Source: Negaprion brevirostris (lineage: Eukaryota). From it: a stretch of DNA of 64,000 bases. Below the pieces are notes generated by a model. That model worked only from the letters and a program-made list of their open reading frames with translations. It was not told the DNA's origin and did no database searches. The DNA is taken from contig JARDVH010000169.1 of the NCBI GenBank assembly GCA_030324005.1, positions 13,298,574-13,362,573 of the forward strand, written 5' to 3'. A program made the position numbers and the translations under genes. The stretch's first letter is position 1. Every line of letters begins with the position of its first letter. Positions 4,151 through 33,430 of this stretch are shown here, in pieces.

Positions 4151-4906
4151 GTAACATGTGGAACAATCTATCCATGTAGCCAAATTAAAAATTGGACAGG
4201 TATGAGAAGTAGAAAATTGAGAGGCATTTGTCCATGAGACTGGACAAATGGAATGCAGATTCCTTACCAGTTCTCTGCCATATATTCCAATCTTATCCCT
4301 ATTTTTAAAAATAATGAATTCAAAATTCGCAAATGACAAGAAACTTGCAAGGAGGATGTGAACTGTAAGGGGGGTAGTGTACAAATCAAATTGACAAAGA
4401 CAGGTTAAAACTTTTAAAGTAAAAATGAATTTATGTAAGTGAGTGATAACAAGAATAGGATGTACAAACGGTACTTGGTGCAAGTTAGGAGTCCCATTTC
4501 ATCCGTAAACATTTTGCCATGAGCGCTCATCAATTTGCAGATATGGTGAAAAATAATAGAATATATCGTCATCACAATATAAAGAAGCAGCATCATCTCA
4601 CTTGAGGGAGTGGAAGGTTCTGGATAAACAACAAATCATTTTCATCACAGCATCATAAAGTACAAATGGTCCCATGACGCATTTCAGTATGATTTGCATC
4701 ATTACACAGAATCAAACATGCTATTGTGAGAGTAGTGTCATTTGAGGAAAGAACAAAATGCAAGAGATTAAAACATTTTATCACAACAGCAAAGTGCATG
4801 GAAAACCAGAGATCTTATTATCATTCAAGCCTGTATGTTAGCACCTTGCTGTTGTTAAGGTGCTTAGTGGTTGTTTGCATTGTATACCTGCTATTAATTT
4901 AACCTT

Positions 4907-5076
4907 AGTAAGAAGTTTCACCACCCCAGGTTAAAGTCCAACAGGTTTATTTGGTATCACAAGCTTTCAGAGAGTACTGCTCCTTCATCAGGTGAGTTGG
5001 ACTTGTTGGACTTTAACCTGGTGTTGTGAGACTTCTTACTGCGCCCACCCGAGTCCCTTGTCGGCATTTCCACATC
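4907..5076. mobile_element. Penelope-like (PLE) non-autonomous fold-back element
   Basis: 37-bp inverted arms 4907-4943 / 5004-5040 (3 mismatches); degraded 13-bp target duplication ttaatttaacctt / tcaacttaatctt; same family as 30377-30596. Confidence 0.75.
4957..4995 (-). ncRNA. Minimal type I hammerhead ribozyme motif (PLE-type)
   Basis: Minus strand TCAC-CTGATGA-AGGAGCAGTACTCTCT-GAAA-GCTT-GTGA: stem I TCAC/GTGA, intact CUGAUGA and GAAA cores, stem II with one bulge, palindromic AGCT stem III, CUU triplet. Confidence 0.65.
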
Positions 5077-5125
5077 TCAACTTAATCTTGTAACATTTCC
5101 TTTCTTGCCACCTTTCTTAAATGTT

Positions 5126-5946
5126 GGGGATGATTTTAAGTGTTGAATTCGCATGAAAACTGGAATAAATCACAATTGATTTTTCAGTGGGGGTTTAAAA
5201 TGAATCTCCCATACTGTGCACTGCAGAGTGCGCTAGTGTAAATCACATTGAAAATCAGCGGCAGGGCCTATCCCCGCTGGAGAGGCCAGCAGCATAGCGC
5301 TGAGTGGGCCACTGTGCACGCACTGATCTGTCAGCACCGAGATCGGCACATGCACAGTGGTCCCTGTCTGCTGGCCTCCCTCCCTCTCCCACTGATCCAG
5401 ACTGCAGAGTGGCAGCAGAACCCACCACTGATGACCCCCCAGTCAGGCCCCACCCCCTTGGCGATGCCCCATGCCTGGTGGGCAGTGCTAAGATGCCCCC
5501 AGGCATTGACAATTTGCCCCTTGGGCAGTGCCAGGGAGTCCAGGTTGGCACTGCCAAGGTGCCCATACCCAGGGGACACCCCTGCCCTGCCCTCTGGGGG
5601 GCCTCAGCACTCAAACAGGGTCAGGCCACCAGCTCCCTGACAGTGGGGAGCTACTGTAAATCCCACTGGAGTGAGGCACTCCCGGCAGGAGAGAGATGTT
5701 AGTGGGCCAGGTGACTTCAGTCCCAGGCCTGCTAATTATATTTAAGTAACACCAAAATGGCTTTCTGAATATCTAATACAGCTCTACACCTATTTCTGGC
5801 ACAGAACTGGCAGCGCCAGAAATTCGGCACTGGGAAAGGCATTTGGGGCTGGACATCTAGCACGGATCGCACTTATCTGGACCCACTGGAATCTTCCATC
5901 CCACTGCACTCAACAAAATTGCACAGCGGGATGGAAGAACTACCCC
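5126..5946. mobile_element. GC-rich non-autonomous DNA transposon (Harbinger/MITE-like)
   Basis: Degenerate termini GGGGATGATTTT / AAGAACTACCCC; GC-rich interior with repeated GGCAGTGCCA/TGGCACTGCC motifs. Confidence 0.55.
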
Positions 5947-30297: not shown

Positions 30298-30376
30298 CTT
30301 CACTGCCCCATTTAGTTAACAGGTGTAAGGGTAATTCACTGGTCTAGATTTGATCAACTGCCAGGAGAGTAAACAT

Positions 30377-30596
30377 GATAAAGAGATGCCGGCGTTGAAC
30401 TGGGGTAAACAAAGTAAGGAGTCTCACAACACCAGGTTAGAGTCCAACCAGTTTATCTGATTGTAATCTTACAAGCTTTCGAAAACGGTGTTCCTTTGTC
30501 AGGTTTGTGGAAGGCAATAGGTGGTGTTGAACCTTCCACACACCTGACAAAGAAACACCGTTTCCGAAAGCTTGTAAGATTACTATCAAATAAACT
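30377..30596. mobile_element. Penelope-like fold-back element with 13-bp TSD and two mutated hammerhead motifs
   Basis: 67-bp inverted arms 30448-30514 / 30532-30598 (5 mismatches, 17-nt loop); exact GGAGAGTAAACAT at 30364-30376 and 30597-30609; CTGACAA...GAAAGCTT on both strands. Confidence 0.8.
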
Positions 30597-31751
30597 GGAG
30601 AGTAAACATACAGGAATCATTTCTCTGTACCATAAGACCAGAGATAGAGCCACGGCAACACAATGGTAAGCCACCATGTTCTTTTTAAGCAAAGCTTCCC
30701 ATTGAAATCATCCAACTGAACATATATACGTGCAAGTGCTGCAGGTTTTTAAATAAGAGGTGCAAAATAAGACTGAAGATTTAAAAATGCCATCTGAACC
30801 TTGGGTGCAACTGGGATCAAGCAGCATTATGTAGGACAGAAGCTATTATACAACGATTGCGACACCAATCCTCGAGGGTAACAGCTTCGATCAAAAATTA
30901 CTTCTTGACACAGAACAGTGGGTACAATTACATGTCAAATTATTCTTAATAAGATAATTAAAGATCTTTTGAAGATAACACTTCAAGAGCAAATATCAAG
31001 CAGGTTATAACTATCTCCTGAAACCAAAAACATTATTGTTGAAATTTGTTGCTTTCTTCAATAATACGTGGTCTTAACTTCATATGAAGGGCTTGTTAAA
31101 TCTTGGGTGTGTATTTGTGCTGGCTATCTCTCAGTAGAGCTACCAAATGTCGAAGGGCTCAGTCATTAATAAATCACATCTGACAACCACTGGTGGTGAG
31201 AGTATTTCCACATATTCACTCTAAGAATCTGAAGCTAATTATACAGAAACTCTTCACATAATACATATTATGAAGATTAACATGTGGAAATTTACATATT
31301 GCAGAATGAATAACTACACTATCATTCATAAGAAAAAGCAACTAATAAAACATGGAATAATAATCATCTGAATCTCAAAAATTGAACAGTTGATTACTAA
31401 ACATCATTGGACTGTGGGTGGCATGAACTTCAGATGAACTTACTTGGATTTTGGCCAATCATGGGTGGGACTCGGGCATCACGTCTTCATGCTGGTGGTT
31501 AAAGGCCTAAAACCAGGTTTAGCCAATTTTTACCTCAAACTGAAAGCAACTCAACACAATGCCTTGAGATTATGTGACACTAAGTCAATACTTCTTTTGT
31601 TGAAAGAGAGAGATCAGTTGCCAATATTTGTTTCACAGCAGCTTCTGATTATTGATAAGTCAGTAACACTTCAGCCTAGTTTCACAAGATAAAAAGAAGG
31701 AATTCGTCGCATTCGGAATGGAACGAAAGAAATTTGAAATAAAAGCATATC

Positions 31752-33265: not shown

Positions 33266-33430
33266 AAGAACTCGGCCAGTCAGAGTTTGGGCAGATATCA
33301 TGACCCCTGCCCAGTCTTTCACAGAAGTCATCCAGCCCACTTCCCCTTGTGGTATTTCTTCCTTTTCGTCCAGCTCTTGGAGAACATCATCTGGCTGGTT
33401 AGCTGAGCCAACACCGATTTTCTGTGCATC
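33266..33430 (-). CDS. KCNMA1: Internal coding exon of the large-conductance Ca2+-activated K+ channel alpha subunit (Slo1/BK), S0-S1 linker and start of S1; equivalent to mammalian exon 2
   Basis: Minus-strand translation [55 protein letters not shown] (55 aa). [26 protein letters not shown] is the invariant Slo1 motif. Pyrimidine-rich acceptor tttctgtttgcttttttcag and donor GTGAGT; phase 0/0; 165 nt. Confidence 0.97.

Follow-up and report, generated by a model that had tools for sequence, protein, structure and literature searches.

The element at 4907–5076 of the window, that is, of the whole 64,000-nt stretch of DNA analysed here, is very probably an old insertion in which two short pLTR ends of a Neptune-type Penelope-like element (PLE) stand head to head and the hammerhead, a passenger in decay, probably leaves KCNMA1 pre-mRNA uncut. 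We read it as a PLE stub because its arms match the ends of copies bearing reverse transcriptase (RT) and GIY-YIG sequence, its tail is one that abuts the ORF start, only one arm carries that tail and target-site duplications (TSDs) flank the whole.

Structure and setting of the insertion

The features of the insertion and its surroundings, in window coordinates, are these:

4894..4906, TSD copy 1, 10/13 identical to copy 2
4907..4997, minus strand, direct arm: tail-less 3' portion of the PLE pLTR, 92% identical to the terminus of L055, a copy with GIY-YIG
4946..4951, minus strand, pLTR hexamer AAUAAA, a feature the family shares, sense to KCNMA1
4957..4995, minus strand, hammerhead motif: minimal type I, core letters intact, A9.1 bulge, palindromic AGCU
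4998..5000, head-to-head junction of the two arms, placed by the letters and by breakpoint analysis
5001..5040, plus strand, inverted arm: final 40 nt of the pLTR, lacking the hammerhead
5041..5076, plus strand, PLE tail of 36 nt, which in longer copies ends just before the ORF start codon
5077..5089, TSD copy 2, 10/13 identical to copy 1
30364..30609, minus strand, another head-to-head insertion from this family (subfamily GGAAC); its 13-bp TSD is perfect
33266..33430, minus strand, KCNMA1 coding exon, matching the BK alpha subunit (E 5e-17)

On the minus strand, the hammerhead reads TCAC (4995–4992), CUGAUGA (4991–4985), A (4984), GGAG (4983–4980) and CAGUA, followed by CUCUCU (4974–4969), GAAA (4968–4965), GCU, U17 at 4961 and GUGA (4960–4957); the predicted cut site lies after the U at 4961. 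All core positions (C3-U4-G5-A6-N7-G8-A9 / G12-A13-A14-A15.1 / U16.1-H17) are present, together with the unpaired base between 9 and 10.1 (A at 4984), a 4-bp stem I with 4/4 pairs retained and the palindrome 15.2–16.2 (AGCU, 4965–4962), and the monomer has no stem III. The core CUGAUGA/GAAA, the AGCU palindrome and the 4-bp stem I had been read in this way in a preliminary description of the stretch, and these letters are confirmed; the core letters and the PLE relatives of the motif also support its assignment to the minimal type I hammerheads of PLEs with palindromic stem III. The stem II register proposed there (AGGAG/CUC(U)CU) has to be replaced. Because the family register is GGAG/CUCC with A9.1 bulged, stem II of this copy contains a 2-nt insertion and has U in place of C11.1, and its 10.1–11.1 pair is G·U in the family register or A-U in the earlier one, not G-C.

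The motif lies, as described, in the loop of a hairpin, the arms of which (4907–4946 and 5001–5040, 90% complementary, 54-nt loop) are each 40 nt long rather than the 37 bp first given. The fold of 4900–5085 has a z-score of −3.65, and 0/200 shuffles were equally stable. The direct arm begins 6 nt before the hammerhead core (breakpoint −6), the commonest 5' end in the family. A degraded 13-bp TSD had been noticed before, and its two copies indeed sit flush with both ends of the element; its score of 7 was reached by 18/420 control pairs, and taken alone it is borderline. Across the family, 17 of the 21 scorable copies (of 30 loci) scored at least 7, as against those 18/420 control pairs. Beside the element, window positions 5130–5600 hold a GC-rich repeat with several inverted repeats that is high-copy in sequencing runs.

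The exon at 33266–33430 encodes residues 62–115 of the solved BK chain and lies upstream of the intron that carries the element. The next KCNMA1 exon motif is ~200 kb further on the minus strand, with later exon motifs on the same strand; the hammerhead is therefore sense and intronic, and the minus-strand exons on either side bear out what had been proposed on this point. Across 474 kb of KCNMA1 (44 kb of it N), we found 25 family arms, 13 sense and 12 antisense, and four intact cores, of which three are sense. From the 4907–5076 copy it is 58 kb to the closest intact core on its strand; neither the 58 kb downstream nor the remainder of the window contained a same-strand intact partner. Two sense intact-core copies in the same intron, L265 (G000:C169 near 13236476) and L264 (near 13245771), lie 9.3 kb apart, and L265, which retains G10.1–C11.1, is the stronger candidate for cleavage compared with the window copy. 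The insertion at 30364–30609 has a sense hammerhead with G8>A and a broken stem I; both of its arms begin at −8, and the usual pLTR end is missing from the inverted arm. The AAUAAA at 4946–4951, shared by most copies, is a putative cryptic intronic poly(A) signal for KCNMA1.

The 4907–5076 insertion junction was also present in contigs of runs X2, X3 and X12, which come from three other organisms, with 12–14 differences in 352 letters. These contigs end before the hammerhead core, and the X11 contig stops before the junction. The insertion is common to the three other organisms and has therefore been kept for some time.

The parent family and its 5' ends

Searching the genome with a 181-nt stretch gave 3,899 first-look candidates, of which 40 were scored. 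Exact copies numbered 5,890 for a 39-mer at the pLTR end and 790 for one intact form of the hammerhead motif (controls, 0 in both cases). The exact 39-mer occurred in 2/22 copies chosen by their endonuclease region, a rate from which we therefore arrive, by arithmetic, at an estimate of roughly 65,000–130,000 arms in the genome; the 25 arms in 474 kb of KCNMA1 point to a similar order. Copies extending upstream of the pLTR reach a GIY-YIG frame, a CX4CxxC linker, RT motifs and a DKG motif, and the linker stands before GIY-YIG in L078, L079 and L076. All three RT fragments matched RVT_1 at E 7e-6 to 1e-4, each under the curated cut-off. One endonuclease (EN) fragment grouped with GIY-YIG clusters in the Atlas at 0.96–0.97, and Pfam returned no GIY-YIG match for either of two EN fragments. 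RT, a CX2-5CxxC linker and GIY-YIG at the C terminus are shared with Neptune, and that linker marks Neptune or Nematis (PMC8557442), so that the label Neptune-type should be taken as provisional, resting on a motif shared with Nematis and not on a tree.

In L110 and L105, the tail sequence continues directly into the ORF start (ATG). The same two copies (L110, 1–900; L105, 501–1400) show an inverted internal ORF piece joined to tail and ORF start, with the tail inside the insertion. The head-to-head layout recurs in 4/4 long copies (L095–L097, and L098 via inverted internal matches). No whole full-length copy with two direct pLTRs was found among four long stretches and 30 N-terminal loci, where the assembly is gapped.

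An inverted pLTR, a 30–40-bp tail on one end and a TSD are the pattern of EN+ PLEs, and 4907–5076 matches it. As in the EN+ PLE insertions described in PMC8557442 and PMC3846280, the arms are head to head, one end bears a tail that reaches the ORF start, the TSD falls within 9–13 bp and the pLTR has TATA and Inr-like motifs, the last two of which are reported for the rotifer pLTR (PMC3846280); unlike those insertions, 4907–5076 measures only 170 bp and carries no coding DNA. Its sequence, then, makes it a head-to-head pLTR stub from an abundant Neptune-type PLE, not a member of a separate retrozyme-like family. Literature listings returned nothing on this PLE family, which the supplements of PMC4209133 and bioRxiv 10.64898/2026.07.22.740005 may list.

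To locate 5' ends, we used the first 100 of the listed matches to the 39-mer, which lies 3' of the hammerhead; 79 ends were resolved, 16 ran into gaps and five lay beyond the stretch. Of the 64 ends lying within −60 to +40 of C3, 23 fell at −9 to −4, and 0/20,000 uniform simulations filled any 6-nt window to this extent. Partner arms behaved similarly, with 9/27 ends at −9 to −4 (23/20,000 simulations). At the cut site, the position of which moves by as much as about 4 nt in variants with a long loop, lay 3/64 ends and 0/27 partner-arm ends, and a pile-up of 5' ends there, an idea prompted by L013 and L018, was rejected on these counts. In those two loci, the inverted arm stops precisely at the predicted cut site, and the stem I letters make up its overlap with the direct arm, an arrangement that is rare in the unbiased sample. 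A TATA-like box occupies −38 to −34 in 11/15 long copies, and the pile-up follows about 30 nt downstream; a spacing of ~30 nt from the TATA box is that of a polymerase II start. Among non-reference bases at −7, 9/19 were G against 0.27 expected (p 0.048, post hoc and from loci partly picked by similarity), a hint of a cap-derived extra G just before a start at −6. The ends in this sample speak against a template whose 5' end is set by cleavage and in favour of a start at the front edge of the ribozyme.

We tentatively consider that the short stubs may be run-off copies of a capped 5' leader, which would start at the front edge of the hammerhead with the TATA box ~30 nt back and be copied by twin priming around the tail from an uncut RNA template; this has something short of an even chance. 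The main alternative concerns the origin of the stubs and leaves their identity as PLE stubs as it is. It holds that the short arms are ordinary 5' truncations copied from the RNA's 3' end, with the pile-up marking where the polymerase fell off at the folded hammerhead, and it strikes us as rather doubtful. The pLTR is alike at both ends of the element, so that the origin of an arm is not readable from its letters; shorter arms also end all along the motif, the extra-G signal is weak, and the promoter of the D. virilis element is TATA-less with starts further upstream (PMC2377424). Against truncation, a stalling polymerase would be expected to stop on the 3' side of the structure and not after passing it, and the pile-up stands about 30 nt behind a TATA-like box in 11/15 long copies. 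Literature listings returned nothing about a pile-up at the start site or about PLE twin priming, and a 5'-end pile-up before the hammerhead, as seen here, is not described in the available portions of the EN+ PLE accounts PMC8557442 and PMC3846280.

A further comparison is with PAc, a Poseidon element of Anolis (Frangieh et al. 2024; PMC11167929), in which, as here, two insertion ends bracket the tail, the hammerhead lies near the pLTR–ORF junction and there is no sign of ends at the cut site. Unlike PAc, whose ORF starts inside the hammerhead, the present family places its ATG beyond the tail, some 120 nt downstream from the core. PAc primes in vitro at two internal sites bracketing the tail (PMC11167929). 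For 4907–5076, the element's protein would have cut both target strands about 13 nt apart, and both cut ends would have primed reverse transcription at two internal start sites bracketing the tail. One cDNA would have reached the RNA's likely 5' end, just ahead of the hammerhead, and the other would have stopped after about 76 nt before the two were joined. The copy would then have drifted, with CpG decay at C11.1 and the 2-nt insertion.

Probably separate insertions rather than a retrozyme-like unit

The hairpin had been described as a short, non-coding, retrozyme-like derivative, that is, a discrete non-autonomous mini-element transcribed and copied as a unit. We regard this as very improbable, and it is already largely refuted. 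The short two-armed layout is repeated in many copies, a junction close to that of 4907–5076 occurs in 3/30 similarity-picked loci (L002, L006 and L011), and PLE pLTRs are indeed the source of retrozymes, which turned up in the sole chondrichthyan sampled by Li et al. (bioRxiv 10.64898/2026.07.22.740005). Like the non-LTR retrozymes of that report, 4907–5076 is non-coding, derived from a pLTR and equipped with a type I hammerhead. Those retrozymes, however, are tandem units with a hammerhead in each, and 4907–5076 is single, inverted and TSD-flanked; in place of the two or more tandem hammerhead units that define a retrozyme, it has one sense motif. A second same-strand hammerhead arm within 1.5 kb was seen in 4/30 intact-core loci, and regular arrays in none. 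Nor does a discrete unit appear to have been amplified whole: arm lengths, junctions and tail side vary between copies, even among the three look-alike junctions, and copy lengths grade continuously into RT- and GIY-YIG-coding copies. In L148, two same-strand hammerhead pieces about 65 nt apart (1498–1693) form a natural local tandem.

Among 37 two-armed insertions, 29 could be scored for the tail, which was on exactly one arm in 28, on the anchored arm in 12 and on the partner arm in 16. Given the variable arms and junctions, the one-arm tails and the TSDs, each insertion looks separately built.

Decay of the ribozyme and KCNMA1 pre-mRNA

Assessed against the min-HHRs of metazoan PLE pLTRs (PMC4209133), the family shares the core, the bulge between 9 and 10.1, the palindromic 15.2–16.2 and a 4-bp stem I. 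It also resembles them in occurring as thousands of single copies from truncated PLEs, with pairs on opposite strands (PMC4209133, Cervera and De la Pena 2014). Its stem II of 4–5 bp is unlike that of the Schistosoma min-HHRs (7–8 bp), and sharks are not named in the consulted text of that survey. The conserved traits of min-HHRs include G10.1–C11.1 (PMC4209133), which the 4907–5076 copy lacks; the family itself is a member, and this copy has decayed.

Pairing in the family was followed in 39 equal-length copies out of 48 parsed in the anchored set. With kinship ignored, 87.8% of cells were paired and two-sided changes affected 4/4 stem II pairs and 0/4 stem I pairs; the stem II changes amounted to 11 cells, and 0/500 shuffles gave as many. 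Rfam hammerhead models, proposed in the preliminary description as a check, gave no match at E ≤ 10 for the 4907–5076 copy and missed an intact family copy as well; this null result is uninformative. The canonical monomer fold that marks RECK-type hammerheads, as seen by these models, likewise drew no match at E ≤ 10.

We sampled decay in 78 copies picked regardless of motif, 69 of which were parsed. The core was kept in 33/69, core and palindrome in 27/69, these plus G10.1–C11.1 in 14/69 and all of these plus both stems in 9/69; 13/69 were in the same state as the 4907–5076 copy. The base between 9 and 10.1 was A in 65/69, and the 10.1–11.1 pair was G-C in 48/69. At the CpG formed by C11.1 and G12, C11.1>T was found in 20/69 copies and G12>A in 17/69, symmetrically on both strands; because this CpG decays alike on both, the catalytic G appears not to be protected after insertion, and inserted copies would seem not to be kept functional. 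Losing G10.1–C11.1 costs cleavage rate. Stem II of the 4907–5076 copy was computed at −2.2 kcal/mol, compared with −6.0 kcal/mol in the intact L146, and pair probabilities were about 0.2 for stem II and about 0.4 for stem I. The "intact core" first attributed to this copy thus holds for its letters and not for the ribozyme as a whole, given the lost G10.1–C11.1 and the poorly formed stem II.

Cleavage of KCNMA1 pre-mRNA by this hammerhead, raised as possible in principle in the preliminary description, is accordingly weakened: any same-strand intact partner is at least 58 kb off, G10.1–C11.1 is lost and single min-HHRs were inactive when assayed (PMC4209133). Judged from its letters, such cleavage appears unlikely. 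That the copy nevertheless cuts the pre-mRNA, by way of a long-range or trans dimer, or aided by chaperones or PLE protein, and thereby influences BK channel expression, is extremely improbable. Its core, palindrome and stem I are intact, where core and palindrome survive in only 27/69 parsed copies; it is on the sense strand, as one of three sense intact cores in one intron, one of the others with G-C; the PAc hammerhead cut when protein was added (PMC11167929), and intronic hammerheads exist in amniotes (PMC6155905). Set against this are the loss of G10.1–C11.1, a stem II probability of about 0.2, a nearest sense intact partner 58 kb away, the absence of strand bias among arms in the gene (13 versus 12) and the neutral decay of G12 across the family. 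Of the cleavable bases U17 is the weakest, which also counts against cleavage of this copy. In published assays, single min-HHRs showed no cleavage and dimers little (PMC4209133), and 8/9 Xenopus dimers did not cleave (bioRxiv 10.64898/2026.07.22.740005). Cleavage by the anole PLE hammerhead requires the element's protein, and insertion can do without the hammerhead (PMC11167929). The hammerhead of the parent element would act in tandem transcripts together with the element's protein, and the lone 4907–5076 copy would have neither.

The insertion at 4907–5076 is a known kind of PLE stub, one of very many; as a locus it is repeat debris of the ordinary sort and offers no grounds for supposing that a ribozyme controls BK channel expression. 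What is useful is the 5'-end pattern of its family. The role of PLE hammerheads in vivo and the origin of inverted arms and tails are left open in the PLE papers cited here, and this genome offers many thousand insertion ends. If the run-off reading is true, roughly 10^5 arms would map the PLE start site, and the copied RNA would not owe its 5' end to hammerhead cleavage.
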